Shown: positions 2,450 through 36,512, counted from the stretch's first letter. The stretch: 64,000 bases of DNA from Patescibacteria group bacterium (GCA_028288925.1 JAQGHG010000005.1:15991-79990); one strand, 5' to 3'. The notes: generated by a model from the letters alone, not told the origin. Translations and numbers: made by a program.

Positions 2450-4303
2450 ATGAAGTCTTTGTACCATCGTACCATAGGATTGCTGTCTGAGTTCGCACGG
2501 AGCCGCCATGGCCTAATCGCTGCCGTTATGCTGGCGGCGATGTTTGGTTTGGGTTTGGGCAGCATGGCCGGAAATTCGGCGATTGTCGACGAGATCGCCC
2601 ATATTCCGGCTGGGTACTCGTATTTGCATTATGGCGACTACCGGTTGAATCCAGAGCACCCGCCGCTTATTAAGGATTTGGCCGGCCTGCCCTTGCAGTT
2701 CATGCATTTGCGCTTCCCGGACGACCAGGTGTCTTGGACGACCGACGTAAATGGCCAGTGGGAGGCGGGTTGGAATTTCCTTTATCACGTCGGCAATAAC
2801 GCGGATATGATTCTGTTTTGGTCGCGGCTGCCCGTGTTGCTGCTGGCAATTGTTTTTGGCGGTCTGTTGTACTGGATCTGCCGCCGCCGGTGGGGTACGG
2901 GAGTGGCGCTTTTGACGCTGTTTTTCTATACCTTGAGTCCGAATATTTTGGCACATTCGAGCTTGGTGACCACCGACTTGGGCGCGACAGTGTTTATATT
3001 TTTGGCGATCGTGGCGTTCGCGCGGTTTGTGGAACGGCCTAACCGTAATAATTTTATCCTTCTGTCGCTTGGATTGGGTGGAGCGCAGATTGCTAAGTTC
3101 TCGGCCTTTTTGTTGTATCCGTTTTTGGGCTTGGTGGTGCTGGGCGTGGTATGGCTGGCCAAGAATCCGAAGAAGCTGGCCGAACGGTTCAAGATATATT
3201 TGGGGGGATTTATTGGAGCTTCGGCGGTGAGTATTGGCTGGGTGTGGCTGTTTTATATTCCTCATACCTGGAACATGTCGAACGCGGTTCAGGACCGGCT
3301 TATCGAGGGGTCGCTGACCAATCCGAATGTGCTAGGTATAGCGCACATGTTGACGAGTCTGAATGATATACCGATCCTGAAGTCGCTTGTGCAGTATGTA
3401 TTGGGCCTCACTATGGTCTTTGGGCGTGTGGCCGGCGGCAACGTCACTTACTTTAACGGCCAAGTGACGGATCAAAGCTTCCATGCCTATTTCCCTGAGC
3501 TTTTCGCGGTTAAGACTCAAGTGGCGTTGCTGATATTGCTTTTGGTGGTGATCGCAGTGGGCTTAGGGCGCTTCGTGTGGTACCGGCAGGTGCTGAAGCG
3601 GGCCAAGGACCATTTCCGAAGCCATGTGCTGGAGTGGACGCTGGGCTTGTTCGCTGCTTTTTACTTCCTGGTATCGGTGGCGGGCAATTTGAACTTGGGT
3701 ATCCGGCATGTTCTACCTATCTACGTTCCGATCTTCATTTTGGTGGCAATCGCGACGGTCAAGTACTGGCGGCAGCTGGCTAAGACCCGCTGGGCCAAGA
3801 CGAGTAGCGTTGTGCTGGCTCTCTTGCTTCTGTGGTACGGCGGCAGCACGGTGGCGGCGTACCCGTCGTATCTCTCATATTTCAACGAGCTGATCGGCGG
3901 CTCGGCCAACGCCGATAAATACTTTTCGGATTCCAGTGTGGACTGGGGTCAGGATTTGCGCCGGTTGAAGGTTTACACTGACCAGCATCCGGAGATTAAT
4001 CGCATAGCGGTTGATTACTTTGGCGGTGGGGTCCCGGCCTACTATTTTTGTAATCGTAAGTATGATGCGGAAGGACGGCTCGTTGCTTCGGCGGCGGGCT
4101 ACGACTGCTCAAATAGCGTATTCGAGGAGTGGCACTCCCAATATGGGCGGTATACCGGCCAGTACATCGCGATATCCGAAACGTTTCTGGAGAATGATCT
4201 GTGGTACTCGGAGGTCAATGGTACGCCCGGGTATGATTACTTGCGTCAACGGAAGCCTATCGCCAAGATTGGCGGCAGTATCTACGTCTACAAACTTTAC
4301 TAA
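2450..4303 (+). CDS. GT-C fold membrane glycosyltransferase (GT39/PMT_2/ArnT-like), polyprenyl-phosphate-sugar dependent
   Basis: 617 aa with multiple N-terminal TM helices. Has a DE motif in the first extracytoplasmic loop (VDEIAH) and a large C-terminal non-membrane domain, resembling protein O-mannosyltransferase / ArnT family members. Confidence 0.6.
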   Translation: MKSLYHRTIGLLSEFARSRHGLIAAVMLAAMFGLGLGSMAGNSAIVDEIAHIPAGYSYLHYGDYRLNPEHPPLIKDLAGLPLQFMHLRFPDDQVSWTTDVNGQWEAGWNFLYHVGNNADMILFWSRLPVLLLAIVFGGLLYWICRRRWGTGVALLTLFFYTLSPNILAHSSLVTTDLGATVFIFLAIVAFARFVERPNRNNFILLSLGLGGAQIAKFSAFLLYPFLGLVVLGVVWLAKNPKKLAERFKIYLGGFIGASAVSIGWVWLFYIPHTWNMSNAVQDRLIEGSLTNPNVLGIAHMLTSLNDIPILKSLVQYVLGLTMVFGRVAGGNVTYFNGQVTDQSFHAYFPELFAVKTQVALLILLLVVIAVGLGRFVWYRQVLKRAKDHFRSHVLEWTLGLFAAFYFLVSVAGNLNLGIRHVLPIYVPIFILVAIATVKYWRQLAKTRWAKTSSVVLALLLLWYGGSTVAAYPSYLSYFNELIGGSANADKYFSDSSVDWGQDLRRLKVYTDQHPEINRIAVDYFGGGVPAYYFCNRKYDAEGRLVASAAGYDCSNSVFEEWHSQYGRYTGQYIAISETFLENDLWYSEVNGTPGYDYLRQRKPIAKIGGSIYVYKLY

Positions 4304-4325: not shown

Positions 4326-4862
4326 TTATTGGCGGCGGAGGCCTTTGGCCAGCTGGATTGCTTCGGATTCGCTGAAACGGTGGCGGCTGGTGATGATGAT
4401 CCACGTGGTGGTGGTCTCGATGCTTACTGCCCGGCGCCCATTGCTTTTGAGGGTGCCCAGGATGGCGGTGTACGGGGTTTTGGATTGGAGATTCTTAGCA
4501 TCTTGGAAGTTCTTATCGTAGAAGGAGGTGAAGTCGAACTTGGGCGGTAAGGCGGTCTCGGTGACGGCAATATTCTCGCCCGCGGGAGTGATAGCCTGGA
4601 ATATGAGCGCGCCGTCTTGTACGGCGTAGGAGTTTTGGTCAAGGGTAAAGCCGGCCGGCACGTAGGTGAGACGGTAGATGGGAAAGAGGGTTCTTTCGGC
4701 GACGTTAGCGGGGACGGTGGCTAGGCTGTGTGTGGACCGCCAGGCCGCTATGCCGCCGCCGGCCAAGAGTAGCGTGAGCAATAGGCCACCGGCGCTGATG
4801 TATGCCCAGCGGGGTGGTCGGCGGCGAGTTGGTCCGGTTGGTGATGGAGCATCATTGGGCAT
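4326..4862 (-). CDS. N-terminally membrane-anchored hypothetical protein (paralog of 7914-8435)
   Basis: Single TM (AYISAGGLLLTLLLAGGGIAAW) followed by an extracytoplasmic domain. It shares the motif pattern P.Y.P.GF...Y....G.LIF......GENI.V..TA.PP.F with the protein at 7914-8435. Confidence 0.45.
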   Translation of the reverse strand: MPNDAPSPTGPTRRRPPRWAYISAGGLLLTLLLAGGGIAAWRSTHSLATVPANVAERTLFPIYRLTYVPAGFTLDQNSYAVQDGALIFQAITPAGENIAVTETALPPKFDFTSFYDKNFQDAKNLQSKTPYTAILGTLKSNGRRAVSIETTTTWIIITSRHRFSESEAIQLAKGLRRQ

Positions 4863-5030: not shown

Positions 5031-7862
5031 ATGGTGTTTGGGCTTATTCTGGTTGGAATGACCGGTATAATAACGGCTCTTGTCCCCGCCCCCGCCCTGG
5101 CCGCCGCCGGCATCAACAAAACCATTGGCTTCCAGGGCCGGCTGCTGACCGCTACCGGGGCGGTAGTACCGGACGGTAACTACAACTTGAAGTTCAAAAT
5201 CTACCAGGATGGTAGTGGCCGCCTTGCGAGTGACGCGGTAGACGGCGCCACCCCGGCCGGTACCCTGATGTGGACAGAACTATGGCAAAACTCGGTAGCT
5301 ACCGGGTCTTCGAGCGGGGTAACGGTCAAGAACGGTTACTTCTCCGTAACTCTGGGTACCTACTGCGTCCTGGCCGGATCGAGCTGCCAAGGCAATTCCA
5401 ACACCGGAGTGAGCTTCAACCAAGACACCCTCTGGCTATCCATGGATGTCGGTGGCACCGCCGTAAGTAACACCCCCACCTACGACGGGGAGATGCTCCC
5501 CATGAAGCGGCTGACTTCGGCCGTGTACGCGCTGCAGGCGGATAACGCTAACACTCTGGGCGGGTTGACGAGTAGCGGCTTTATCCAGAATACGGCGACC
5601 GTCCAGACGAACGCGAATATTGCTATCCAAAGTGTGGCGGACGCGAGTGTGACCCTGCTCCTGAAGGAGCGGGCAACGCAGTCGGCGGATATTTTGCGCG
5701 TTACTGATTCTAGCAACGTCCTGATTTTCGATATCGATACGTTTGGCAAGCTCCACCAGGCGTACGCGGCTACCTTCGACGGGGCGGTGGGCATCGGGAT
5801 GGCAAGCAGTTCGGGCGAGCAGCTGCGGGTAGCGGTCGCGAGCGCTTCTACGGTTGGATTCGCCGTCTATGGCAGTACCGGCCAGACGGCCGATCTGATC
5901 AACGTGGACGCCGAGGGTACCAAGGCGCTGAACTACACCGGAGCCGGTACACTGGCCGTAACCGCCGGGTCGGGGCAGACCGCCGACCTCCTGCAGGTCA
6001 AAGACACGACGGGGGCGAACTTGCTCAAGGTGGATTCGGGAGGCAACCAGGAAGGGACCGGGTATATCAATAATGGGTATGGCGGGGTTGGTCAGTTTGG
6101 GAATCTGCTGACTTATAGTGAGCAGTTCGATAATGGCGCCTGGACGAAGACGAGCGTGACGGCCCCGACGGCTGATACGATCGTGGCGCTGGATGGGCAG
6201 ACGACGGCCGAGAGTCTGGCCGATAGCGGCAGCGGGGGAAGTGTGAGCCAGACCTCCGGAACGGCCCCGACTAATGCCAACTACACGTTTAGCGTGTGGT
6301 TGAAAACGGCGAGTGGTACTCAGCCGGCCGATTTGCGCATCGACGGCGCGACCACCGGCACGGGCACCAAGGTCACGGTTACCGCTACCAGTACCTGGCA
6401 ACGGTTTAGTGTAACGCAGAATACCAACGGTTTTACGGGTAACATTAAACCCTTGATCTTTCCGGGAGGTACTGCTGGTAGCGGCACGGTACACGCTTGG
6501 GGCGCGCAGCTCGTTCTGGCCTCGGTACCCCAGGTGTACGTCCGGGCGACGGCTACCACCGTGGCGGCCGGCCAGGGTGTGGTGAGCAATGGCGGGGCAT
6601 TTATTTCGAGCCTTAATGCTACTGATATTCCATTGGTGGTACAGGGGTCGCCGTCGCAGAGTGGAGATCTGCTGCAGCTTCAGAATTCGAGTGCTACGAG
6701 CTTGTTTAAGGTGGGTGCGGTTGGTGGGCTGACGATAGCCGAGGCTTCGTTTGGCGCGGGGGCCGCTCCCGTGGCGCTATCGGTGACGGGCGCCGGCGGT
6801 GGTACGGGCGTCACGGGTGGCGCGGGTGGCGCTATCTCGCTGGTGACCGGCAACGGCGCGAACGGCACTACTAACGGCGGCGCGGGTGGCGCGGTCACGA
6901 TCACGGCGGGCAATGGAGGCTCCAACTCCGCTAACGGAGCCGGTGGCACCATTACCCTGGCGGCGGGCAATGGCGGCACCACGGCGGTTAGCGGCGGCAA
7001 CGGCGGCTCGGTGATCTTGCAGGGTGGCGCGGCTCAAGGTGGCGGTACGGTGGGCAAGGTGCTGGTAAAACCGCTCGCGAACGCCGACTCCACGGCGGCT
7101 TTCCAGGTACAGAAGGCCGGTGGCGCGGCGATGTTCGCGGTGGATACGACCAACCAGGCTGTAATAGTCGGTACGCCCGCAGGCGATAGCGTCGGCACCG
7201 TTTTGCAACTAGGGGTCAAATCGAATGCGGGCGATCCAGCCGGTGGGTATGTAGTGGACGGGGCGATATATTACAACAGTTCGACAGATTCGTTCCGCTG
7301 CTACAACAATAGTTTCTGGGTGAGCTGCATCGGCGGTATGCGGTATTCGCAGACTAGCCAGGGTGGTGCGAGTAACAACCCGCCGGCTGGTGATACCGTC
7401 GGCAACACCACTACCGCTACGACTTTTGCTGAATCTTACTCGGTTCCGGCTAACGACTGTATCCCGGGCCGGGTGTATCGGATAACGGCTGGTGGTTTAT
7501 GGGGCGATGCTGCTACGTCGGTCTTTACACTTAAGGTATTATGGGGCGCGACAACGGTGGCGGTAACAGACGCGGGCGCGACTCTGAATTATGCTAGTCA
7601 GACGGCTCAGTATTGGCACGCTCAGATTATGCTTACATGTTTCACTAATGCTTCGGCGGTTACAGCAATAGAGGCGACGGGGCAAGTGTTCTTTAACGCC
7701 AATAACGTGGGTCAGGTGATGGGCATTGGAACGAGTGTTAAAGGACAGGCTGTGACTACGAATAGCAGTCAGACGCTTAAACTCCAGGTGACGTGGGCAA
7801 ACTTGAGCGCATCAAATACTATTACGCTCCGTACTTATGTTGTCGAGTCTATGGGGCCGTAG
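5031..7862 (+). CDS. Large secreted Gly-rich repeat protein with central CBM-like beta-sandwich (putative surface/adhesin or fiber-like protein)
   Basis: 943 aa with an N-terminal signal peptide (MVFGLILVGMTGIITALVPAPALAAAG). Contains four copies of a GQTADLLQVKDTTGANLLKVD-type motif and a CBM4/9-like segment (NANYTFSVWLKT...TWQRFSVT). Also has roughly 15-aa Gly-rich tandem repeats (GGAGGAISLVTGNGA and similar) and a Cys pair near the C-terminus. Confidence 0.6.
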   Translation: MVFGLILVGMTGIITALVPAPALAAAGINKTIGFQGRLLTATGAVVPDGNYNLKFKIYQDGSGRLASDAVDGATPAGTLMWTELWQNSVATGSSSGVTVKNGYFSVTLGTYCVLAGSSCQGNSNTGVSFNQDTLWLSMDVGGTAVSNTPTYDGEMLPMKRLTSAVYALQADNANTLGGLTSSGFIQNTATVQTNANIAIQSVADASVTLLLKERATQSADILRVTDSSNVLIFDIDTFGKLHQAYAATFDGAVGIGMASSSGEQLRVAVASASTVGFAVYGSTGQTADLINVDAEGTKALNYTGAGTLAVTAGSGQTADLLQVKDTTGANLLKVDSGGNQEGTGYINNGYGGVGQFGNLLTYSEQFDNGAWTKTSVTAPTADTIVALDGQTTAESLADSGSGGSVSQTSGTAPTNANYTFSVWLKTASGTQPADLRIDGATTGTGTKVTVTATSTWQRFSVTQNTNGFTGNIKPLIFPGGTAGSGTVHAWGAQLVLASVPQVYVRATATTVAAGQGVVSNGGAFISSLNATDIPLVVQGSPSQSGDLLQLQNSSATSLFKVGAVGGLTIAEASFGAGAAPVALSVTGAGGGTGVTGGAGGAISLVTGNGANGTTNGGAGGAVTITAGNGGSNSANGAGGTITLAAGNGGTTAVSGGNGGSVILQGGAAQGGGTVGKVLVKPLANADSTAAFQVQKAGGAAMFAVDTTNQAVIVGTPAGDSVGTVLQLGVKSNAGDPAGGYVVDGAIYYNSSTDSFRCYNNSFWVSCIGGMRYSQTSQGGASNNPPAGDTVGNTTTATTFAESYSVPANDCIPGRVYRITAGGLWGDAATSVFTLKVLWGATTVAVTDAGATLNYASQTAQYWHAQIMLTCFTNASAVTAIEATGQVFFNANNVGQVMGIGTSVKGQAVTTNSSQTLKLQVTWANLSASNTITLRTYVVESMGP
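6780..7045 (+). repeat. Imperfect in-frame tandem DNA repeats (about 45-60 nt units) encoding GGxGGx(I/V)(S/T)(L/I)xxGNGG
   Basis: Repeated ggcggcgcgggtggcgc...ggcaacggcg units are visible in the sequence. They are coding, inside 5031-7862. Confidence 0.5.
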
Positions 7863-7913: not shown

Positions 7914-8435
7914 TTATTTTGCCAGAATGAGTTTATGAGCGATGGATTCGAGCGTGCTCGTGGGTACGTTGGCGCTGGTGTTCATGAGTATCCAGGTTTT
8001 GTTGCTGCCGGTGGTAAGGCTGGCGATTTGCTGGATTTGAGAGCCGTCTTGGGCCTGGCCGATGTAGCCTTGGCCCGCCGGGGCGGCGAGTTTGGTGGAA
8101 TGCTGGAGGTTTTTGTGGAAGGTGTCGAGTTTGAGCTTTTTGCCGTTGGGCGGCGCTTGCTGGCTGATGTAGATGGTCGGTTTATCATCGCTGCGGATTT
8201 CGAAGATGGTAATCCCCTTTTCGGGTTGACTGACGGATCCGTAATTTATGGAATAGCTTTTGGGCAGCTTGCCGGGGTAGTACAGCGGGATATCGCTGGC
8301 ATTGATAATGCGGGACGCGAAGGGACTGTGGGGCTGAGCATGCCGGTATACGAGTATTATGCCGGCTGCCGCGCTGAGTGCAATTATGGCTGCGATAGTT
8401 AAGCTAATCTTGAGATTGAGCCGGGGCCATGTCAT
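7914..8435 (-). CDS. N-terminally membrane-anchored hypothetical protein (paralog of 4326-4862)
   Basis: TM (ISLTIAAIIALSAAAGIILVY) plus an extracytoplasmic domain similar to 4326-4862. Its start overlaps the stop of the upstream GH130 gene by 4 nt. Confidence 0.45.
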   Translation of the reverse strand: MTWPRLNLKISLTIAAIIALSAAAGIILVYRHAQPHSPFASRIINASDIPLYYPGKLPKSYSINYGSVSQPEKGITIFEIRSDDKPTIYISQQAPPNGKKLKLDTFHKNLQHSTKLAAPAGQGYIGQAQDGSQIQQIASLTTGSNKTWILMNTSANVPTSTLESIAHKLILAK

Positions 8436-9424
8436 GGGGTGAGGTTTCCGAGAAGTTCATCTAGCTTACAAGTAGCAAGACAAACGCCTTGATCACCGGA
8501 GCCGTAGTAGACGTAGAGGTCTTCGCCTACGATGACCGCGCCGGAGGGGAAGGTTACATGGTCGACGACGCCTTCGAGCTCTTCGGGGGTTTCGGGCCGC
8601 AGGATGGGCTCGGACGTGGTGGCGAGGACTTTCCAGGGCTCGTTGAGGTCGAGGAGGGCGGCGTTTATTTGCCATTCGCGATGGTCTTCGGTGTTTGAGG
8701 GGCAGTAAATGAAGAGCCAGCCGTCCTTGGTGCGGATGGGCGGCGCTCCGAGCTCCGGACCGCGCTGGACGCCGGTGACATGGCCGTCGTGCTCGATGGC
8801 GGTTGGTTTGAGTACGGCGTACTCATCGTAATGCTCGAGGGTATTGGCGATGAGGCCGGCCGGCGGTTTTTTGAGCTCGGCTACAGAGCCGAATCTTGCG
8901 TGCATAATGGTGGATTCGGGCCGGTCAGCGCGCCAGGTGTAGTACCAAATGTATTGACCGTTGACCGGCTCGGGCAGGAGCGCGGCGGCCTTGGAGCGCG
9001 AGCCGTGTGGGCCGACGACGCCATGTTTGGTAACGGTTTTGAAGTCGGTGGTAGTGGCGAGGGCGACGCGGACGTTCTTGATGTTGTCGTGCCACTCGAC
9101 GGCGGTGTAGTAAATGAAGTACTCCTCCCCTATCTTGGTGACGCGGGGGTCTTCGCAGCCGAGACCTTGTTCGTAGGGCTGGTCTGGTGTGATGAGCGGC
9201 TCAGACCGGCGTTCGAAGTGGATACCGTCGGTGCTTTCGGCATACCCGATTGACGAGATGTATTGACCGCTGACGCTGGTTTTGACGTCGTTTGTGGCCC
9301 GGTACAGCATGCGGAATAGCCCGTCTTCGTAAAAGACGTTAGCATTGAAGACCGATCCAGCCTCCCAGGTGTTTGCGGGGTTCTTTTGGAGAATGGGGTT
9401 TTGGGGGTGGCGGATGAGTCGCAT
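8432..9424 (-). CDS. GH130 family protein (beta-mannoside phosphorylase/DUF377-like), single domain, cytoplasmic
   Basis: GCEDPRV signature and a five-bladed propeller-like pattern (WLFIY, YVYYGSGD). No signal peptide. 330 aa. Confidence 0.8.
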   Translation of the reverse strand: MRLIRHPQNPILQKNPANTWEAGSVFNANVFYEDGLFRMLYRATNDVKTSVSGQYISSIGYAESTDGIHFERRSEPLITPDQPYEQGLGCEDPRVTKIGEEYFIYYTAVEWHDNIKNVRVALATTTDFKTVTKHGVVGPHGSRSKAAALLPEPVNGQYIWYYTWRADRPESTIMHARFGSVAELKKPPAGLIANTLEHYDEYAVLKPTAIEHDGHVTGVQRGPELGAPPIRTKDGWLFIYCPSNTEDHREWQINAALLDLNEPWKVLATTSEPILRPETPEELEGVVDHVTFPSGAVIVGEDLYVYYGSGDQGVCLATCKLDELLGNLTP

Positions 9425-9442
9425 GGTTTTATGATACCAGAG

Positions 9443-11359
9443 CTAGCCGCGCAGGGCGCCTAGCAGGTCGCGCAGGCGCATGGTGGCTACGGCTACCACA
9501 TGGTCGGCGCCGCCGTAGTAGAGGTAAATGGTGTCGCCGCGCAGCACTTGGCCGCACGGGAAGACGACGTTGCCGATCCAGCCTTCGCGCTCCCAGGGCT
9601 CGACGGGCGTCATGATGGGCTGGCTGGCGCGGCCAAGCACTTTGGTGGGGTCTTTGCGGTCCAGGAGTACGGCGCCCAGGCAGTAACGGCCCTCGGCGGT
9701 GATGCCGTGATAGAAGAGGATCCAGCCGAGGGGTGTTTTGAGGGGCGGCCCGGCGATGCCGACTTTGCGGCTGTCCCACATGCCGCGCCGAGCGCCGAAG
9801 AGCTGGATGCAGCGGGTGAGTTTTTCTTTGCGGAAGTCGAGGGTGGTTACGTAGTCGGCGCAGACGTGGCCGTCGACCCGGTGCAGAACCATGTAGCGGC
9901 CGTGGATTTTCTCGGGGAAGATGCAGGCGTCTTTGTCGTCGACGCCATCTGGGCTGACGGTTTCGGGCATGGTCCAGGCATCGAAGCGGCGGGCTAGGAA
10001 GTCGGCGACGCTGATGGAGCTTTCGGCTACCTGCGGCGAGCTTACGCTGTCGAAGGCGGTGTAGGTGACGTGCAGGCGGTCGCCGATGCGCACGACGCGG
10101 GCGTCTTCGCAGCCGGAGTTGTCGGTGGGGCCGGCGTGTTTTTGCTCGAAGCCGACCCGGGGTACATAGATGGGCTCGGGCAATCGTTCGTCGATGTGGA
10201 CGCCGTCTCGTGAGGTGGCCAGGCCGATGACTGAAGTGTTTTCGGGGCCGACGGCGCGGTAGAGAATGTTGATCGTGCCGTCGATCTCGACGGCGGTGGG
10301 GTTGAGGACGTGGGCGGCTTCCCAGGGGTGGTCCGCGATGGGCTCGAGGATGGGATTTTCGGGCGGGCGCTGAACGTGCTGTTTAATACTCCCGTCGGCC
10401 GACATACTGGCCATAAGGGCCTTGAAGCTTAGGGCGGCGCGGCAGCTGGTGGTGTCGGTGCCGCCGTAGTAGACGGTGAGCCGGTCGCCGTGGCGCAGGG
10501 CGCCGCTCGGGAAGATGATGTTGGGCAGCCGGCCGTAGCGCTCGTAGCCTTCCTCGGGCACCATGAAGGGATAGATGGTGCGTTTGAGGACTTTGGTGGG
10601 GTCGTGCAGATCGAGCAGGGCGGCTTCGATGCCGAAGATTTTGTGGTCGGTGAAGTATTCTTGAATGTGTGAGTACAGTAGCAGCCAGCCGTCCTTGGTC
10701 CAGATGGGCGGCGCGCCGACTTCGACGTGATCGGTGTCGCCGCGGACGAGGTTGAGGGTGCGATCATCGAGGTGTTCGCGCCAGTTTTCCCAGTACTTGG
10801 GCGACCACATGTCTTCGGGCCGGTCGAATTCGGCGATGGCTATCTTGGAGGGCGGCCGGTCGGAGTCGACTGTCAGGATGGCGCGGAGTTTGCCGTTGAC
10901 GCGCTCGGGGAACAGCGCCATAGCCTTGGCGTTGAAGGGCGTGACGAGGTGCTTTTGGTCGATAGTCTTGAGGTCTTTGGAGGTGGCGACGGCGACTTTG
11001 ATGTTGTCGGGCCCAAACGGAAATCCGCCCAGCGCCGTATAGAAGATGTAGTAAGTGTCGCCGAGCTTGGTAACGCGCGGGTCTTCGCAGCCGAATTCAT
11101 CCCAGGGTTCGCTGGGTACGATGAGCTGCCGAGGCTCGCCAAACGTCTGTCCCCCATCCGTGCTGGAGGCGATGGCGACCGTGGAGAGCTCGACATCGTG
11201 GCCGTGGTAGAGCGCCGGATGGCTGGCGGCGCGGTAGATGAGGTGGAGGGTCTCGCCTTGCATGACCGGTGAGGGGTTGAAGGCCGCCTCGGCCAGCCAC
11301 GGCGTATTGGGGTCTGGGCTGATGAGCGGATTACGGGGGTCGCGGGTAACATTGAACAT
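9443..11359 (-). CDS. Tandem double GH130-domain protein
   Basis: 638 aa. Two complete GH130 units, each with its own signature (FGCEDPRVTKLGDTYYIFYTA and SGCEDARVVRIGDRLHVTYTAF) and a terminal YYGG(T/A)D motif. Confidence 0.8.
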   Translation of the reverse strand: MFNVTRDPRNPLISPDPNTPWLAEAAFNPSPVMQGETLHLIYRAASHPALYHGHDVELSTVAIASSTDGGQTFGEPRQLIVPSEPWDEFGCEDPRVTKLGDTYYIFYTALGGFPFGPDNIKVAVATSKDLKTIDQKHLVTPFNAKAMALFPERVNGKLRAILTVDSDRPPSKIAIAEFDRPEDMWSPKYWENWREHLDDRTLNLVRGDTDHVEVGAPPIWTKDGWLLLYSHIQEYFTDHKIFGIEAALLDLHDPTKVLKRTIYPFMVPEEGYERYGRLPNIIFPSGALRHGDRLTVYYGGTDTTSCRAALSFKALMASMSADGSIKQHVQRPPENPILEPIADHPWEAAHVLNPTAVEIDGTINILYRAVGPENTSVIGLATSRDGVHIDERLPEPIYVPRVGFEQKHAGPTDNSGCEDARVVRIGDRLHVTYTAFDSVSSPQVAESSISVADFLARRFDAWTMPETVSPDGVDDKDACIFPEKIHGRYMVLHRVDGHVCADYVTTLDFRKEKLTRCIQLFGARRGMWDSRKVGIAGPPLKTPLGWILFYHGITAEGRYCLGAVLLDRKDPTKVLGRASQPIMTPVEPWEREGWIGNVVFPCGQVLRGDTIYLYYGGADHVVAVATMRLRDLLGALRG

Positions 11360-11363
11360 AGTG

Positions 11364-13232
11364 TTATGCTACGTCGCCGGCCGAAGTGAGCACAAGGGCA
11401 TGGTCTTTGACGAGCGCGTCTAGGAAGGCGTCGACATTGGCGCGGGCGGCGGCTACCCGCTTGTCCCCGCCGCCGTAATACACGATGAGGTTTTCGCCCA
11501 GGACGACCGCGCCACAGGTGTAGACCACGCCGGGTTTGCCGTCGTTCTCGTACCATTCCTTGGGCTCGAGGATGGGAGCGTTGGTGCGGTAGAGAATTTT
11601 GGTGGGGTCGTCCAGATCGAGCAGCATGGCGCCGAGCTTGTATTTGCCGGGGTCAAACTTGTCGTTGGCGTGGTAAAACAGGAGCCAGCCCATGGCGGTC
11701 TTGATGGGCGGCGCGCCGGTGCCACGGACCCGGCTGTCCCAGTGGTCTTTGCGGCGGGGGTCGCCGTAGCCGCCACCGTGAGCCGGCGGCAGGCTGTCGA
11801 TGAAGGTTTTGCCGTCGAGGGCGTCGAGGCTGTCGACGTATTCGATGTGGATCTTGGGGCTGAGGCCGTGCAGAATGGCGTATTTGCCGTTTACTTTTTC
11901 CGGGAAGATCACCCAGTTTTTATTGGTCTCCTTGGGACGGGAAATCATGACGGATTTGCGCCAGTTCCATTTCTTGAGCTTAATGTTTTCAAGCGAGATT
12001 GAGGTAAGAGCGATGCGCATGTTGTCCCAGCCGCAAAAGGCGGTAAACGACATGTAGGCGTGGCCGTCGAGCACTACCGCCCGGGGGTCTTCGCAGCCGG
12101 CCCAGCCGCCGCCGGAGGGATGCTCGGCGAGGTTGTAGCCTTGTTCGGGGCGGATGTGTCCGGGGTCGGGCGTGCCGATGCCGTGGCTGGGGGTATATAC
12201 GGGGTGGCTCAGGCGGTCGTCAAAGTGGATGCCGTCGGCGCTGGAGGCGTAGCCGATGCGCGAGACGCCGTCGGGCCCCATGGCGCGGTAGAGCAAATGC
12301 ACCCGTCCGTCGCTCACAAAGGCGGCGGGGTTGAAGACCGCCTCGGATTCCCACTCGTAGGCGCTGGGCTCCATGATGGGATTGTGCATGGAGCGGTGGA
12401 GTTGGGTGCGGCGGCGGCCGCGGGCACGGACGGCGAAGGGATTAGGCAGTCGCAGGGTGATGAGCTTTTCGGTATTGCTGGTGAGATACACCACTATTTC
12501 GTGATCGGACACCACCGCGCCTAGACTGCGGGGCTGGTCTCTTTCGGCGGTAGAAAATTGGTGGAGCGGCTCGTCGGAACGCCAGAGGACGTGCTCGGGG
12601 TTGTCGGCGGCGCAGAGCAACACACCGATTGAGACGGTGGTCTGCTTGTGTTTGGTTTCCCGAGTCTCGTAAAGCACCACTATCCCCTGCTCGACGTGGG
12701 CGGTGGTGACGACCTGGAGGGTGTGGGCGTCGAAACGGTCTTTGCGCGGGGCGGCGACGGCGTGGCCGGTGTTGTGCCAAGCTACGAGGTTTTTGGAGAA
12801 GGCTACGTGCAGTTCCCGCTCGCCGTAGTACAGAACGTGCTGGCCGTTGTGCAGATACTCGGGGACCACCATACCGGCGCCGGTGAGGTGATGGTTAAAG
12901 GATGGGACGTTCCAGATATCGATCTCGTCGTCGGGGTCGCGAATCGCGATTCTCAACTCGGGCCGGCCCTCGTGCTCGATGGTGTAGGCCATGATGCTTT
13001 CGTCTAGCACATGCGAAACGCGCACATTTTGGATGTGCGCGAGGTGTTCTTTGCGCCCGAGTGGCAGCACGATGGACGGGCCGGCTGATTCCAGACGAAA
13101 AGTCTGATCATCCCCGTGACCCAGTACGAGGCGGTAGGTTTCCGAATACTTTTCGCGACCGATAAGACCTACGGAGTCATTGTCGCGAAATATGCCTAGC
13201 GGATGAGTTCGTCGTAATGCGGAATGACTCAA
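11364..13232 (-). CDS. Double-propeller protein: degenerate GH130-like N-domain + canonical GH130 C-domain
   Basis: The C-terminal half has GCEDPRAVVLDGHAYMSFTAF and LIVYYGGGD. The N-terminal half is propeller-like but lacks the GCEDPR signature. 622 aa. Confidence 0.7.
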   Translation of the reverse strand: MSHSALRRTHPLGIFRDNDSVGLIGREKYSETYRLVLGHGDDQTFRLESAGPSIVLPLGRKEHLAHIQNVRVSHVLDESIMAYTIEHEGRPELRIAIRDPDDEIDIWNVPSFNHHLTGAGMVVPEYLHNGQHVLYYGERELHVAFSKNLVAWHNTGHAVAAPRKDRFDAHTLQVVTTAHVEQGIVVLYETRETKHKQTTVSIGVLLCAADNPEHVLWRSDEPLHQFSTAERDQPRSLGAVVSDHEIVVYLTSNTEKLITLRLPNPFAVRARGRRRTQLHRSMHNPIMEPSAYEWESEAVFNPAAFVSDGRVHLLYRAMGPDGVSRIGYASSADGIHFDDRLSHPVYTPSHGIGTPDPGHIRPEQGYNLAEHPSGGGWAGCEDPRAVVLDGHAYMSFTAFCGWDNMRIALTSISLENIKLKKWNWRKSVMISRPKETNKNWVIFPEKVNGKYAILHGLSPKIHIEYVDSLDALDGKTFIDSLPPAHGGGYGDPRRKDHWDSRVRGTGAPPIKTAMGWLLFYHANDKFDPGKYKLGAMLLDLDDPTKILYRTNAPILEPKEWYENDGKPGVVYTCGAVVLGENLIVYYGGGDKRVAAARANVDAFLDALVKDHALVLTSAGDVA

Positions 13233-13309
13233 TTGTCCGAAAATCCTCAGTTCACGTTAATTTTAGCACAAGCATTATGGTGTCCGCTAGACGAAAATGT
13301 CAGCGAATA

Positions 13310-14086
13310 TTAATACATTGGTTTATGGACGTAATTGGGTTTTTTGTATTTGCCGATGATGGCGTTCCAGCGGATTATCCAGAGATCGAGGAAGCCACTA
13401 AGGGCGGCTTTGATAGGATTATCCCCTACTAACCCCATGCCCGCGGCTTTTGGATCCTTCCAGTCTGGCGCTTCGATGGAAACAATTTTGTAGTGGAGCA
13501 ACCGGGCGATTAATATAATTTCGGCGTCAAAGCTCCAAGAGAGCATGGTCATGCGGCCGAAGATTACTTCGGCGGTGTCGGCCCGAAAAACCTTGAAGCC
13601 ACATTGCGTATCTTTGATACCGGGTGCGACTAGGATTTGCGCGGCGACGTTGCTGGTGCTGGATATGAGCTTGCGGATAAGCCCTTTGTGAATCTTCCAT
13701 AAGTCGCGGGTGGCGATGCCGATGTGGGCGTTTTTGTCGATCACGAGGCGCTTAACGTCGTCGAGGTGCTCCAGCGGCGTGGCGAGATCGGCGTCCATGA
13801 AGATCTTGTAGTGGCCGCGGGATTCGTACATTCCCAGTCGGACATCGCGGCCTTTGCCGACACGCGGGCCGGCGTGGACGAGGCGAAAATGCTGGAACAG
13901 CTTGGCGCGGCTTTCGGCGATTTTGGCGGTACCGTCGGGACTGTCTGGTACTACCACGACTACCTCGACGGCGCCATAATCACGGGTTTTGAGAAAGGCG
14001 GCGAGTTTTTCGAGGTCATCGGCGATGCCGGCGGCCTCCATATAGGCGGGGATGATGATACTGAGATCGATGGGGGCGGTGGTCAT
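13310..14086 (-). CDS. GT2 glycosyltransferase, polyprenyl-phosphate sugar synthase (DPM1/GtrB/ArnC-like)
   Basis: LSIIIPAYMEA...VEVVVV.DSPDGT...DADL: a GT-A DxD-type fold of about 258 aa. Confidence 0.75.
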   Translation of the reverse strand: MTTAPIDLSIIIPAYMEAAGIADDLEKLAAFLKTRDYGAVEVVVVVPDSPDGTAKIAESRAKLFQHFRLVHAGPRVGKGRDVRLGMYESRGHYKIFMDADLATPLEHLDDVKRLVIDKNAHIGIATRDLWKIHKGLIRKLISSTSNVAAQILVAPGIKDTQCGFKVFRADTAEVIFGRMTMLSWSFDAEIILIARLLHYKIVSIEAPDWKDPKAAGMGLVGDNPIKAALSGFLDLWIIRWNAIIGKYKKPNYVHKPMY

Positions 14087-15624
14087 TTGGCGACCTCGTA
14101 GGTGTAATAGATCTCGGCCTGGTTAAACGATGAGTAGTGGGGTCGCAGTACGCCGCCAGGGAACTTAATCTTGAGGATTTTTACCGATTCGTCGCGGGAA
14201 GTGCTGGTGATCATAAACTGGCGGTTGACGGCGGGGATGGGGAGGCCGGCAATGTCTTGGGCCTGGATCGCTTGGTAAGGTATCTTGCCTGGATTGAGAA
14301 AGGCTACGACCGGCTGTTCGTCCTTGCTTGCTACGAGGTAGCGCTCGCCCTTGAATTTGTCAGTTTGAAGATTGGCGGCGATCTGGGCGGAGCCTTCGTT
14401 GTAGGCAGCGTAAACTTCGCTCGATCCGGCCCAGGCACGGAAGTACTGGGTGTAGCCTTGGAAGAGCGTCAGCGCCAGGAGTAGTATGACGGCCGCTTGG
14501 CCGCTTGCCCGGGCGGCGGAGTTGATCGGGAAGGTGGTGTACCACAGCTCGAGCATGTAGGAGATGCCAATGGCGGCGAGCACTAGGACAAACGGGAGGG
14601 CGCCGGCCGCGCGGGCGGCGTTGGGGACGCCGGCGGTGGTAAGCAAGGCCGGCAGGAGCATGATGAAGGTGAAGGCGATCGCTACCTGGTAGCGGCGTTC
14701 GTGGAGGCGTGAGATACCTACGAGCAGGCCGGCTACGAGCATCAGCCCTACAAAGGCGTTGAGCATTGGTTCGCCGGCTAGATTGTGGCGGTAGTTTTCG
14801 TCGCCGCGGACATTGAACATGAGGAGCGTGCGGCCAAGATTGCCGCCCAGTGTACTGAGGCTGGCGGTGAGCCCGCTAGCCGTGGGCAGGTGTTTGAGCG
14901 CGTCCGCGGAAGTGCCGGCTAGGTAGCCAAAGAGCCCAATCCCGGCGGCCAATCCGGCAGCGCCGACAAGGCGGGGCTTGGTGATGGCCCGGAGAGGCTT
15001 TTCGCGCAGTAGCCAGATTGCTCCGGTCGCGAGTACGAGGAGCACTAGCAGCCAGCCAATGGGGCCGCTCAGGAGGTCGAGCGTCAGGGTAGCTGCTAGC
15101 GCTACGTACCGCCAGAGGCTGGGTCGCCGCCGGACGAGGGTGGCTAGCCAGAGCGTGAGTGGTACCAGTAGCGGGATGACGGCCGCGCTCTGCCCGTTGC
15201 GTGAGAGCATGACGGCCCATGGCGTGATGGCGACGAGCAGTGATGCCAACCAGGCGACGCGAATGCCAAACCATGAACGCGCCCATAGCCAGGTAGCCGG
15301 TATGGCCAGGGTGCCCAACAGAGCCGGCCAGAGGTGCAACGCCAAGCTGGTGTGACCGAAGAATTTGACACTAAGCGCCTGTAGCCAGACCCACAGAGGC
15401 GCGTAGCCATTGGTGGCGTTCATGGCGATGAATTTGCCGTGCTCGGCCAGGCCGGCGGCCTGTAGACCTAGCGTGGCGGTGCCTTGGTAGAGCCCGGGCG
15501 GCAACGTGCTTAGCTGGTAGAAGCGAAAGAACGCGCCAATGGCGAGTACCAACGTTGTACTAATGGGGACTGTGTACCGGCCGAGCCAGACGAAGGGCGG
15601 CCGAATTTTGGTTGCCGATGCCAT
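14083..15624 (-). CDS. GT-C fold membrane glycosyltransferase (GT39/PMT_2/ArnT-like)
   Basis: 513 aa, polytopic. Has an N-terminal FRFYQLSTLPPGLYQGTATLGLQAAGLAEHG loop region typical of the PMT_2 family. Overlaps the GT2 gene by 4 nt. Confidence 0.65.
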   Translation of the reverse strand: MASATKIRPPFVWLGRYTVPISTTLVLAIGAFFRFYQLSTLPPGLYQGTATLGLQAAGLAEHGKFIAMNATNGYAPLWVWLQALSVKFFGHTSLALHLWPALLGTLAIPATWLWARSWFGIRVAWLASLLVAITPWAVMLSRNGQSAAVIPLLVPLTLWLATLVRRRPSLWRYVALAATLTLDLLSGPIGWLLVLLVLATGAIWLLREKPLRAITKPRLVGAAGLAAGIGLFGYLAGTSADALKHLPTASGLTASLSTLGGNLGRTLLMFNVRGDENYRHNLAGEPMLNAFVGLMLVAGLLVGISRLHERRYQVAIAFTFIMLLPALLTTAGVPNAARAAGALPFVLVLAAIGISYMLELWYTTFPINSAARASGQAAVILLLALTLFQGYTQYFRAWAGSSEVYAAYNEGSAQIAANLQTDKFKGERYLVASKDEQPVVAFLNPGKIPYQAIQAQDIAGLPIPAVNRQFMITSTSRDESVKILKIKFPGGVLRPHYSSFNQAEIYYTYEVAK

Positions 15625-16112
15625 TACTTAAATACCACCTTTTTATACATTATATAATTCCAGGTCAGGCTGATGACGGTAGCGATGGCCTTCGCGCCAT
15701 TTTTTATCAGAAAATCATCGTGTCCGCGGACGCCTATCGCGTGAGCTACCAGGATGCCAGTTTGCATTGGGTAGAGCCAGACGTCGGTCAGGAGCTTAAT
15801 GGTACCGGTTTGGAGGACGTACAGGCCAAACGCGGTTACCAACAAGAAGCTAATGGATTGCCGGACAAGAGGGCTGTCGTGTTTCTTAAATACCAGGTGC
15901 CGGTTGGCCATGAAGCTAAAGGCCATGGCGATGGTGGTTGAGATAATATTTGATTGTACAAGCGAGAGACCGATTTTGCTCGACAGCAGATTATAGATGA
16001 CGAAGTCGAGAAGGGTGTTGAGTACGCCGACTAAACCAAATTTACTGACACGCCGGAATTCGCTTCTTCGGGATGTGGCTACCACCTTGACCTCTTTGTT
16101 CTTCGTAAGCAT
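15624..16112 (-). CDS. GtrA-family small membrane protein (polyprenyl-P-sugar flippase-like)
   Basis: About 160 aa with 4 TM helices (FGLVGVLNTLLDFVIYNLL...). Start re-assigned to ATG at 16112 (MLTKNK); the track ORF extends further upstream in the same frame. Confidence 0.7.
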   Translation of the reverse strand: MLTKNKEVKVVATSRRSEFRRVSKFGLVGVLNTLLDFVIYNLLSSKIGLSLVQSNIISTTIAMAFSFMANRHLVFKKHDSPLVRQSISFLLVTAFGLYVLQTGTIKLLTDVWLYPMQTGILVAHAIGVRGHDDFLIKNGAKAIATVISLTWNYIMYKKVVFK

Positions 16113-16143
16113 AACTGATTTGGCTTCCAGCTGTAAATAGGCT

Positions 16144-16656
16144 CTATGTGGGCCATGAGCGTCCGCTGGCGAGCCAGCCCGCTTTGATGACGGGTTGATC
16201 TGGTGTTTGGAGCATTGGAATCTCACTAATGGTAAAGCTGGCACTCTCGATAATCTCTTCGCCGTAGTGCAGTGCTAGTGCTTGATCGGTCGTGGCCCAG
16301 TAGTAGGCCATGTAGCTGACGGGGAAGGGGTAGGTTTTGCCTGCCTGAGGGTGCGGGGCTGGTGTAAGATGGGTGATCTCGCGGATAGCAAAAAGCTGGT
16401 AGCTGTCGATAGTGAAACCACCCTCTTCGAGCGCTTCCCGGCGGAGGGCGTCCTCAGGGGTTTCCCCCTCCTCGATGTGGCCGCCGAGCATGCCCCAGCC
16501 GCGTTGGCTGCGGGCTAGTCTGATTTTATCCCTGGTGATGGCTACGCACATGACGGCGGTGCATAATTCCGTGGGCGGAGGGGTTGAGGCTGTATAGAGC
16601 TCCCAAGTGACGTTTTTGCCCCAGTCCCCCGTCTTGATAGTGGTGCGGCTCGTCAT
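16144..16656 (-). CDS. NUDIX hydrolase
   Basis: Nudix box GGHIEEGETPEDALRREALEEGG. Confidence 0.75.
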   Translation of the reverse strand: MTSRTTIKTGDWGKNVTWELYTASTPPPTELCTAVMCVAITRDKIRLARSQRGWGMLGGHIEEGETPEDALRREALEEGGFTIDSYQLFAIREITHLTPAPHPQAGKTYPFPVSYMAYYWATTDQALALHYGEEIIESASFTISEIPMLQTPDQPVIKAGWLASGRSWPT

Positions 16657-35511: not shown

Positions 35512-36512
35512 GCAACGACACGCCGTACCACCTTGCCGGCCCGCTCGAGCATTTGGACGGCGTAGCCTTCGGAGTGATCAACACTATAGACGAATTCGGC
35601 GATATCGGTCTCGGTGAACATGCGGGCGCAGGCGGGACACGGCAAGAGGTTGATGAAGAGCGTGGCGCCGCGCAGGTCAATCCCCTCTTTTTGGGCTTTG
35701 ATGATCATTTCGACCTCGGCGTGGACGGTGTCGTAGTGGTTGAGGTCGTGCGGCGGCGAGAAGTTAGTCTCGCGTGAGGCGCCGTAGTGCATGGCGTAGG
35801 TTTGGAACGGTACCACCCGGTTGAAGGCGGCGGCGAGGTATTCGTAGGTACCGGCGGCCTTGGCGGCGCGGCCCAGCGTAACGCCGGTCTGGAAACTGTA
35901 GTCGAAGGAGAGCTTGGCCGTGTCGCCGGCGAGGGCGAGCATTTCGGCTTCGGAATGTGTTTCTCCCGTCTTGGGCGCGATCAGGGCGAGCATTTCGGGC
36001 ATCACGCGGGCTTCGTACTCGCGGGCTTCGGCTTCGTCGGTGAAGGGCGAGATCATTTCGTACGGGATATGCCGGTTGATGAGCGTGTAATAATTTTCGG
36101 TGGTGTGGAAGGCCTGCTTCCAGGAGCCGTTGATGAGCACGACGCGCTGGAGCGCGAGCTTCTCTAGAATATATTTGGTCTCACGCTGGGCATAGCTGAG
36201 GGCGGCGATGGTGTGTTTGCCGCTGGATGCGTTTACTTTGTCGATAATTGGCTGGACGGTGGCGGCTTGGAGCGTACGAAACTGCGGTTGGCCTTCGAAC
36301 CCGGCGATGTAATCTTCTTTGGCTAGTCCGAGGATGATATTACCCCGCGGCAAGTAGGTTTTGATGAGCTGGGTGAAGCGTTTCACAGAGATTTCACGCG
36401 GGGCGGCAATGAAGGTGGCCTTCAATTCATTGAGCGGCTTCTTGCTTTGGAAAGCCATATCCGACCAATCGAAGACGTAATTATTCATAACTTTAGGCTT
36501 TGGATGGACCAT
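35502..36512 (-). CDS. dCMP/cytidine deaminase-fold protein with about 190-aa N-terminal domain of unknown function
   Basis: The C-terminal region carries HAEVEMI...LLPCPACARM, a zinc-dependent CDA motif of the dCMP-deaminase type. No match was recognised for the N-terminal half. The alternative start at ATG 36488 abuts the upstream gene's stop. Confidence 0.7.
   Translation of the reverse strand: MVHPKPKVMNNYVFDWSDMAFQSKKPLNELKATFIAAPREISVKRFTQLIKTYLPRGNIILGLAKEDYIAGFEGQPQFRTLQAATVQPIIDKVNASSGKHTIAALSYAQRETKYILEKLALQRVVLINGSWKQAFHTTENYYTLINRHIPYEMISPFTDEAEAREYEARVMPEMLALIAPKTGETHSEAEMLALAGDTAKLSFDYSFQTGVTLGRAAKAAGTYEYLAAAFNRVVPFQTYAMHYGASRETNFSPPHDLNHYDTVHAEVEMIIKAQKEGIDLRGATLFINLLPCPACARMFTETDIAEFVYSVDHSEGYAVQMLERAGKVVRRVVAQG

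Follow-up and report, generated by a model that had tools for sequence, protein, structure and literature searches.

A 64-kb stretch of a Patescibacteria / Saccharimonadia metagenome-assembled genome (MAG), the whole of which we analyzed and refer to as the window, carries three adjacent genes, named here g1, g2 and g3, in which an earlier note had counted five propeller domains of glycoside hydrolase family 130 (GH130): one in g1, two in the tandem protein g2 (units g2A and g2B) and two in g3 (units g3A and g3B). GH130 is a textbook family in which one fold serves phosphorolysis, hydrolysis and weak nucleotide-sugar transfer, and the question posed by the locus is what five such propellers do side by side. 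Our answer, held with moderate confidence, is that the region is a cytoplasmic β-1,2-mannoside turnover module made of GH130 propellers that have diverged in mechanism.

Five propellers and two fusions

The Pfam model PF04041 (Glyco_hydro_130, five-bladed β-propeller; cut-off 26 bits) matched all three whole proteins (g1, E = 2.4e-43; g2, 7.2e-88 in two stretches; g3, 4.1e-45), and by unit it scored 148.8 bits for g1 and, in separate scans, 146.6 for g2A, 153.2 for g2B and 136.7 for g3B. Each half of g2 scanned separately gave a full-length match at ~1e-43 to 1e-45, and the C-terminal half of g3 was likewise matched over its full length. Unit g3A alone reached 22.2 bits, under the cut-off. Against the GH130 unit profiles, hhalign gave it a probability of 95-98.6%; its AlphaFold2 model, built on 19 orthologous N-terminal halves, had a pLDDT of 91.8 and a pTM of 0.90; and the best 34 matches of that model in a Foldseek search of the PDB were all GH130 structures, at 10-17% identity. 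By modeled fold and by descent g3A is a GH130 propeller, predicted to be a non-catalytic member, and the count of five domains in three genes was borne out by Pfam and, for g3A, by these three methods. The two units of g2 are both complete GH130 domains, as had been stated, although the GCEDPR motif ascribed to both is GCEDAR in the second.

Finer models did not claim the proteins. The NCBIfam equivalog for β-1,2-mannobiose phosphorylase (NF052550, cut-off 450 bits) missed g1 (212.7) and g3 (239.6), and g2 stayed below it at 405.9 bits even when summed over its two units; the GH130_3 β-1,2-mannosidase model (NF058598, cut-off 550 bits) missed g1 (112), g2 (175.3) and g3 (141.8). Public annotation of these gene families reads 'hypothetical' or 'GH43/DUF377'.

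GH130 sequences are mono-modular in over 99% of cases, with four GH130-GH130 proteins among 6308 (PMC7660257), so the rarity of such fusions asserted in the earlier note holds in the literature, though in Patescibacteria the GH130-GH130 fusion proved to be the norm. Among the best 120 relatives of g2 (52-100% identity), 109 are 620-670 amino acids (aa) long, and g3-like proteins of 600-660 aa are just as common. A scan limited to a single genome for each species turned up a relative in at least 597 genomes; 80 loci were kept, and the full two-unit g2 is encoded in 80/80 of these species-level Patescibacteria loci, which are labeled Saccharimonadia, Adlerbacteria, Paceibacterota, Moraniibacteriota, Nomura-, Zambryski-, Campbell-, Taylor- and Lloydbacteria, with a few odd MAG labels. 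The predicted model of g2 (pLDDT 94.6, pTM 0.90) is confident across the junction between the units and has no disordered linker.

Faulty assembly or gene calling might in principle have produced the fusions, through a frameshift that joined separate genes, and the earlier note had itself raised this danger. We give that explanation practically no credence, and no evidence in its favor was found: 109 protein clusters, drawn from independent assemblies, contain fusions of the same length, as do 80/80 species genomes, and the structure prediction that the note had called for gave, for g2, high confidence through the join of the two units. Errors or decay do occur, but in the opposite direction, since in a 74%-identical relative (locus L004, 7541-9422) the orthologue of g3 is divided between ORFs of 463 and 173 aa, either by a sequencing frameshift or because the gene is decaying.

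Larger single-chain fusions were also found, g3B-g2A-g2B (971-1110 aa) and g3B-g2B (704 aa), in which the same site types are kept (proteins P0065, P0077, P0086, P0089 and P0187, and 8001-10916 in locus L008). In L008 the start of the triple fusion runs into the stop of a gene for mannose-1-phosphate guanylyltransferase (ManC), and the fusion is preceded by a large processive GT2 and by sugar-nucleotide-modifying genes. The g3A family has 408 representatives at E ≤ 1e-10, and in a few proteins (P0385, P0405, P0502) it is the C-terminal half that the g3A-type domain matches, a hint that the domains there stand in reverse order.

Four active-site states

In GH130 a proton-donor Asp works with a phosphate-binding Arg (in the motif 'HR') and His ('YHG'), and with Arg, Glu/Tyr, Lys/Arg and Asp at the +1 subsite (PMC7660257, PMC4599007, PMC12814180). 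In the hydrolases of the family the basic phosphate-binding residues are replaced by carboxylate bases, E227 and E268 in BT3780 (PMC4599007), and specificity for β-1,2 linkages goes with a Glu before the catalytic Asp and a Lys at the R150 position of Uhgb_MP (PMC7660257). We set the numbering by HMMER alignments to Uhgb_MS, Teth514_1788/1789, Lin0857 and BT3780 and then read the columns in orthologue sets; residue states across genomes were read by hmmalign, which replaced an earlier reading by regular expressions that was too crude (11-24 unassigned).

The catalytic Asp (D104 of Uhgb_MP) is invariant in four units, as D92 in g1, D93 in g2A, D419 in g2B and D382 in g3B, while g3A has N69 at this variable position. 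The Glu/Lys pair is invariant in the same four units, and by the published rule (PMC7660257) all four catalytic units share the same β-1,2 determinants, which speaks against the different linkages proposed in the earlier note. The phosphate-binding pair (R168/H231 of Uhgb_MP), on the other hand, is complete only in g2B (H493-R494 and H551), the corresponding residues being Gly/His in g3B, Thr/Cys in g1, Thr/Ser in g2A and Tyr/Glu in g3A. Judged by these residues, the locus as a set cannot be filed as 'five phosphorylases'.

Unit g2B has a canonical phosphorylase signature by sequence. In 109 proteins and 80 genomes R368, E418, D419, K476, H493-R494, K532, H551, Y559 and D619 are invariant, and the best PDB match is Teth514_1788 (E = 1.8e-51).

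A different state was found in g2A and g1. In the same 109 proteins and 80 genomes g2A keeps R43, E92, D93, K145 and D302 without exception, but the Arg position is T/S/A and never R, the His has become S/A and the Tyr F, and D167 and E213 are invariant, with E245 nearly so. In 120 homologues of g1 the invariant residues are R42, E91, D92, K145, T163 (the Arg position), R221, E224, W251 (the Tyr position) and D311; D167 is present in 119/120, and the His position holds C241 in 107 and Ser in 13. E213 of g2A and E224 of g1 align with the catalytic-base candidate E268 of BT3780 in every alignment, pairwise or profile, so that T163, C241 and E224 of g1, and T163, S230 and E213 of g2A, present the GH130_3 pattern of lost basic residues and a carboxylate at E268. 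Because the Arg, His and Tyr are lost and invariant carboxylates are gained, one of them aligned with E268, we consider g2A and g1 most likely to be hydrolase-like and predict that they are not phosphorylases; D167 of both is a candidate for the equivalent of E227.

The known GH130_3 hydrolases BT3780 and BACOVA_03624 (PMC4599007; PDB 5a7v, 3qc2) resemble g2A and g1 in retaining the Asp, the +1 Glu and the Lys while having lost the phosphate-binding residues, but identity to them is 24-28%, and both g2A and g1 lie closer to the phosphorylase subfamily. Given this position nearer to the phosphorylases than to GH130_3, the pattern suggests an independent conversion to the hydrolase type. The settings differ as well, g2A and g1 being cytoplasmic and fused or next to phosphorylases, whereas enzymes of the BT3780 type belong to a polysaccharide utilization locus.

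It could instead be argued that all four catalytic units are phosphorylases differing only in chain length or acceptor, as Teth514_1788 and Teth514_1789 do, with the altered residues of g2A and g1 forming an alternative phosphate site. The units are closest to the GH130_6 β-1,2 phosphorylases (31-39% identity), g1 retains the invariant R221 near the site, and g3B, as described below, indicates that a phosphate site may be rebuilt with other residues. We nevertheless regard this reading as decidedly unlikely, for g2A and g1 lose Arg, His and Tyr together and gain two to three invariant carboxylates that should repel phosphate, the very pattern that defines the GH130 hydrolases (PMC4599007). Moreover, the canonical state occurs in 0 of the 109 proteins and 80 genomes for g2A and in 0/120 for g1, whereas g3B shows both states.

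Unit g3B is invariant at R316, E381, D382, K438, H455, H521, Y531 and D590 in 82 two-domain and 22 single-domain relatives, and of the PDB entries Teth514_1788 is the nearest to it (39% identity). Where the canonical Arg would stand, g3B has G456 here and G/S/N/A in most relatives. The description of g3 as a degenerate unit plus a canonical one thus stands for g3A and for the GCEDPR motif of g3B, but g3B lacks the canonical phosphate-binding Arg (LHG, not LHR). When the position was followed through 79 genomes by hmmalign, 69 were without Arg456 and with Arg503, 10 were with Arg456 and without Arg503, and none had both or neither; the naive probability of such exclusivity is ~1e-12, a figure inflated by the relatedness of the genomes. 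The ten genomes with Arg456 span all three g3 architectures (L016, L030, L035, L044, L045, L048, L054, L056, L073 and L074) and carry Lys at 502, as g2B and Teth514_1789 do. The combination of Arg456 and Lys502 has an ancestral look.

This alternation looks like the relocation of a phosphate-binding Arg to position 503, two strands away. Since the lost Arg456 would be compensated by the covarying Arg503, the pattern argues that g3B retains phosphate chemistry and still handles inorganic phosphate (Pi), mannose 1-phosphate (Man-1-P) or a nucleotide sugar. A role for g3B as a transferase, considered by analogy with Leishmania MTP1/2 and the tree in PMC12814180, was weakened by the strict alternation of Arg456 and Arg503 in the 79 genomes.

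In g3A the residues of the catalytic machinery drift. The ED pair is QN here and S/T/Q plus D/S/N in orthologues (51 close, 31 distant), the +1 Lys has given way to an invariant Gly and the His to Glu, and the equivalent of D304 varies; together with the model, this predicts a dead but well-folded propeller. As g3A illustrates, the system does keep dead GH130 domains, which lends some color to the idea that only g2B is an enzyme, with g2A, g1 and g3B as non-catalytic sugar-binding or regulatory propellers like g3A. We find this very improbable: across hundreds of sequences g2A, g1 and g3B do not vary at the catalytic Asp, at any -1/+1 subsite residue or at the replacement residues, whereas the same positions drift freely in g3A.

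Scoring each unit for the catalytic Asp and the phosphate residues, as the earlier note had recommended, therefore separates phosphorylase, hydrolase-like, rebuilt-site and dead units, four distinct active-site states by sequence, each conserved in its orthologues. The sub-functionalization that the note had proposed is upheld by this divergence, as is the pairing of a catalytic with a non-catalytic module, in the fusion of g3B to the dead g3A.

A conserved core and a proposed route for mannose

The units are only distantly related to each other (28-37% identity, ~20% for g3A), and the catalytic ones are equally distant from the Thermoanaerobacter enzymes (31-39%). By hhalign profile score g2A is nearest to g1 (the g1 profile scores 523 against g2A and 404 against g2B) and g3B is nearest to g2B. 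We classified the GH130 units of 88 loci with unit-specific hidden Markov models and found a g3B-type gene directly 5' of g2A-g2B, on the same strand, in 79/79 genomes with upstream DNA. A g3A domain is present in 36/79, g3B being single-domain in the other 43, and a g1-type gene adjoins g2 only in this locus, L004 and L049. The g1 family is widespread outside Patescibacteria, for example in Catenulispora (57% identity), where the neighbors of the homologue, fatty-acid synthesis genes, were uninformative. Given that g3B adjoins g2 in every genome, g3A in fewer than half, and g1 rarely, the conserved unit is g3B followed by g2A-g2B, an ancient operon core across Patescibacteria, with g3A an optional accessory and g1 a lineage-specific recent addition. 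The 'local expansion' of the earlier note does not fit units as far apart from one another as from the Thermoanaerobacter enzymes in an ancient arrangement; only g1 is lineage-specific. Architecture, conservation, active-site states and synteny are here direct observations.

Neighbors within 5 kb in the 80 genomes were clustered without prior choice, and two families stood out. A 117-aa cupin with a mannose-6-phosphate isomerase (PMI) domain (PF01050, E = 2e-20) is present in 39-49/80 genomes, mostly directly upstream, and a HAD-IIB protein matching eukaryotic-type phosphomannomutase (PMM; PF03332, 40.6 bits, cut-off 22.4) directly flanks the module in 29-36/80. Other neighbor families each occur in ≤ 9 of 80 genomes.

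The activities, substrate and direction of flux that we propose are inferred from residues and gene context. In the proposed scheme g2B would act as an inverting phosphorylase, interconverting β-1,2-mannoside and Pi with α-Man-1-P and a shortened acceptor. A second phosphate-dependent unit, g3B, with its phosphate-binding Arg moved from the 'HR' strand to 503, would probably serve a different chain length or acceptor, as the neighboring Teth514_1788/1789 pair suggests by analogy. The water-using β-1,2-mannosidase-like hydrolases g2A and the stand-alone g1 would act on substrates or end products that the phosphorylases cannot clear. Unit g3A may be a structural partner of g3B, covalently attached in the place that the other subunit takes in a GH130 dimer; such a pseudo-partner is plausible because the GH130 β-1,2 enzymes are dimers in which an interface loop shapes the donor site (PMC12814180). 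The Man-1-P would pass to the PMM-like HAD protein and the PMI-like cupin in most lineages and, in this Saccharimonadia lineage, might feed a GDP-mannose pool for the adjacent GT2, GT-C and GtrA surface-glycosylation genes.

The closest described system is the GDP-mannose salvage cluster of Thermoanaerobacter, in which two phosphorylases, Teth514_1788 for oligomannan and Teth514_1789 for mannobiose, provide a guanylyltransferase and a mannosyltransferase with Man-1-P, no ATP being spent (PMC4264767). No solved structures are closer to any of the four catalytic units than those of its enzymes, which are cytoplasmic and share the Glu/Lys determinants; the GH130 genes stand side by side next to mannose-activating or glycosyltransferase genes (PMC4264767), and g2B has all of their catalytic and phosphate-site residues. 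The present module differs in sequence (31-39% identity), in its fused, carboxylate-type, relocated-Arg and dead units, and in having neither an ABC transporter nor a GH5 nearby, its usual partners being the PMI-like cupin and the PMM-like HAD protein.

Other GH130 enzymes offer partial parallels. The dual phosphorylase-transferases Uhgb_MS and Lin0857 (GH130_4) share the fold, the catalytic Asp, the E136/K184-type β-1,2 specificity and a short L2-type region after HR, but their 48-residue lid loop is not evident here, and the state of g3B, which lacks an R202 equivalent and has R503 in compensation, is absent from PMC12814180, in whose decision tree fewer phosphate contacts shift GH130 activity away from phosphorolysis. 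The four CAZy GH130-GH130 sequences among 6308 (PMC7660257) have the same tandem architecture, but both of their modules fall in one sequence-similarity meta-node, whereas the modules here are of differing active-site types. GT108 (Leishmania MTP1-7, mannogen; PMC10913872) likewise combines a five-bladed propeller, paralogues of different donor chemistry and a single β-1,2-mannan, and the same Arg position serves there as a functional marker (PMC10913872); its strict transferases, however, have His at that position, where g3B has Gly/Ser/Asn/Ala and a compensating Arg.

The resemblance to GT108 bears on the main rival to salvage and turnover, an endogenous reserve cycle in which an intracellular β-1,2-mannan is both made and degraded, as is Leishmania mannogen. 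Here g3B and/or g2B would synthesize it from Man-1-P or GDP-mannose, phosphorolysis would mobilize it, the hydrolase-like units would trim it, and PMI and PMM would lead to fructose-6-phosphate. All units are cytoplasmic, g1, g2 and g3 having neither a signal peptide nor a membrane segment by hydropathy; no conserved transporter lies nearby, the main neighbors are PMI-like and PMM-like, both reversible, and ManC adjoins in L008. The tested β-1,2 GH130 phosphorylases all use GDP-mannose weakly, and Teth514_1788 makes long chains by reverse phosphorolysis (PMC12814180); GT108, related propellers, run such a cycle (PMC10913872). On the other hand, the literature searched reports no β-1,2-mannan from these bacteria, the glycosyltransferase side activity of GH130 possibly has no physiological relevance according to the authors of PMC12814180, a PDB search at E ≤ 1 with a profile of g3B-type proteins brought up no GT108 chain, and the compensating Arg503 favors ordinary phosphate chemistry over a dedicated transferase in g3B. 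We consider a reserve cycle unlikely, if worth keeping in view; one of the units may act as the synthase that the earlier note had suggested.

The turnover module therefore remains our preferred reading, and several points weigh against it. The relocation of the Arg in g3B is read from sequence covariation, not from coordinates, and shared ancestry of the genomes inflates its significance. The second base of BT3780, E227, gave inconsistent registers in MAFFT, phmmer and hmmalign, at a point where BT3780 has an extra hairpin, and the characterized GH130 hydrolases belong, by sequence, to another subfamily, g1 scoring 112 and g2 175 bits against the NCBIfam cut-off of 550. No conserved sugar transporter was found near the module among the neighbors within 5 kb in the 80 genomes. 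The link to GT2, GT-C and GtrA is confined to one Saccharimonadia clade (L004 and 4/80 loci) and may be positional only. Finally, β-1,2-mannans are rare in nature.

Gene neighborhood and significance

Coordinates are collected in Table 1; those of the three GH130 open reading frames (ORFs), all on one strand, are exactly as the earlier note had given them.

Table 1. Features of the GH130 locus and its immediate neighbors, in window coordinates.
Feature	Coordinates	Strand	Description
g1	8432-9424	minus	330 aa, single-domain GH130
g2	9443-11359	minus	638 aa, tandem g2A-g2B
g2A	10388..11359	minus	residues 1-324 of g2; carboxylate-type, predicted hydrolase-like β-1,2 unit
g2B	9443..10387	minus	residues 325-638 of g2; canonical β-1,2-mannoside phosphorylase signature
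g3	11364-13232	minus	622 aa, TTG start, g3A-g3B
g3A	12408..13232	minus	residues 1-275 of g3; N-terminal degenerate propeller, predicted non-catalytic pseudo-enzyme domain
g3B	11364..12407	minus	residues 276-622 of g3; catalytic, β-1,2-type, rearranged phosphate site
173-aa protein	7914..8435	minus	N-terminal membrane anchor; start overlaps g1 stop by 4 nucleotides (nt)
Promoter-like site	13274..13303	minus	CTGACA-18-CATAAT, 10/12 matches
GT2 glycosyltransferase, polyprenyl-phosphate sugar synthase-like	13310..14086	minus	258 aa; PF00535 E = 2.2e-17
GT-C fold membrane glycosyltransferase (PMT_2 family)	14083..15624	minus	513 aa; PF13231 E = 8.2e-9
GtrA-family small membrane protein, putative lipid-linked sugar translocase	15624..16244	minus	PF04138 E = 1.1e-20, residues 68-205

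The gaps among g1, g2 and g3 are 18 and 4 nt. The g2 protein is 100% identical to an NCBI 'hypothetical protein', while the NCBI form of g3 (P0121, 568 aa) starts 54 codons downstream of the TTG. Because orthologues align from about residue 5 of the 622-aa ORF, with the upstream residues 'LRRT.PLG.FRD' conserved, and a Shine-Dalgarno-like GAGGA stands 11 nt ahead of the TTG at 13232, the 622-aa form appears the more likely. The promoter-like site sits in the 77-nt gap 5' of g3, the only sizeable intergenic gap in the gene row; such sites are no more numerous in the region than chance predicts, which makes it weak evidence for a promoter. The 173-aa protein, whose hydropathy peaks at 2.45 at residue 10, had no Pfam or NCBIfam match and no phmmer match in the 80 loci.

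In Gtr-type glycosylation, a polyprenyl-phosphate sugar synthase, a translocase and a GT-C transferase make up a three-component system. The consecutive overlapping genes at 13310-16244, with PF04138, PF00535 and PF13231, have that composition, and a GT2, a GtrA family member and a PMT_2-type GT-C upstream of g3 recall GtrA / GtrB / GtrC; an association with GH130 was seen only in this Saccharimonadia clade, the three genes lying upstream in this window and its closest relatives, L004 and L009-L012, to which a GT2 kept 5' of g3 is likewise restricted. The GT2 has weak NCBIfam matches to dolichyl- and polyprenyl-phosphate hexose transferases, and the strongly hydrophobic GT-C protein has a stop that overlaps the GT2 start by 4 nt. 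Counted from the GTG at 16244, the GtrA ORF shares 100 nt with the NUDIX gene upstream of it (16144-16656); since Pfam matches it only from residue 68 on and the L004 orthologue has 154 aa, translation probably starts at the ATG at 16112. The NUDIX hydrolase, encoded immediately 5' of the glycosylation operon, could have a nucleotide sugar as substrate. No PMI, PMM or ManC homologues were found in the 64-kb window.

On the other side, a 943-aa protein (5031-7862, plus strand; NCBIfam 'phage head spike fiber domain' NF048003, E = 1.1e-21, no Pfam family) and small minus-strand genes at 4326-4862 and 7914-8435 part g1 from a second PMT_2 GT-C gene (2450-4303). In L004 a PMT_2 gene directly follows g1, so that ~5.5 kb appears to have been inserted in this window. 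Farther away, one minus-strand protein (36485-37477) joins HIT and NUDIX domains, both nucleotide-hydrolase folds. Every 2-kb bin has a positive GC skew (0.06-0.23), with a monotonic rise in cumulative skew and most genes on the minus strand; a similarly strong strand asymmetry has been reported for another genome of the candidate phyla radiation (CPR; PMC7143001).

In one Saccharibacteria genome (L001, 11921-13276) a GH63 / MGH1-like glycoside hydrolase follows g2, its best NCBIfam match being glucosylglycerate hydrolase, below the cut-off. A link to mannosylglycerate, considered on account of this gene and the HAD-IIB genes, was rejected, as a GH63 gene occurs in 0/80 genomes and the HAD-IIB protein matches no mannosyl-3-phosphoglycerate phosphatase model.

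The GH130 family and this kind of pathway are already known. Our literature search on GH130 proteins of Saccharibacteria/Patescibacteria found nothing beyond a gene count, and one for new GH130 mannosidases found nothing on these proteins. What appear to be new are the obligatory module of three unit types (g3B, g2A and g2B), a carboxylate-type clade that lies closer to the phosphorylases than to the known GH130_3 hydrolases, the putative relocation of the Arg in g3B, and the retained pseudo-enzyme domain g3A.

The boldest reading, which we think quite unlikely, is that Patescibacteria, whose metabolism is minimal, keep an intracellular β-1,2-mannan reserve analogous to mannogen, built, phosphorolysed and hydrolysed by the three co-evolved site types of g3B, g2B and g2A, which are always co-encoded and at times share one chain, and linked directly to glycolysis by the PMI-like and PMM-like proteins; on that view hydrolysis would have arisen anew in the carboxylate units, within a phosphorylase lineage, and the move from Arg456 to Arg503 would be a natural re-engineering of a phosphate site.

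For the family, the locus offers natural fusions of a phosphorylase-type with a hydrolase-like unit and of a catalytic with a dead unit, together with a phosphate site whose Arg appears relocated, and all three, conserved over many genomes, are test cases for the rules by which mechanism is read from sequence. For the organisms, a widespread operon tied to PMI-like and PMM-like genes points to a mannose route missing from current CPR metabolic reconstructions and, if the substrate is self-made, to a new bacterial storage or osmolyte polymer.

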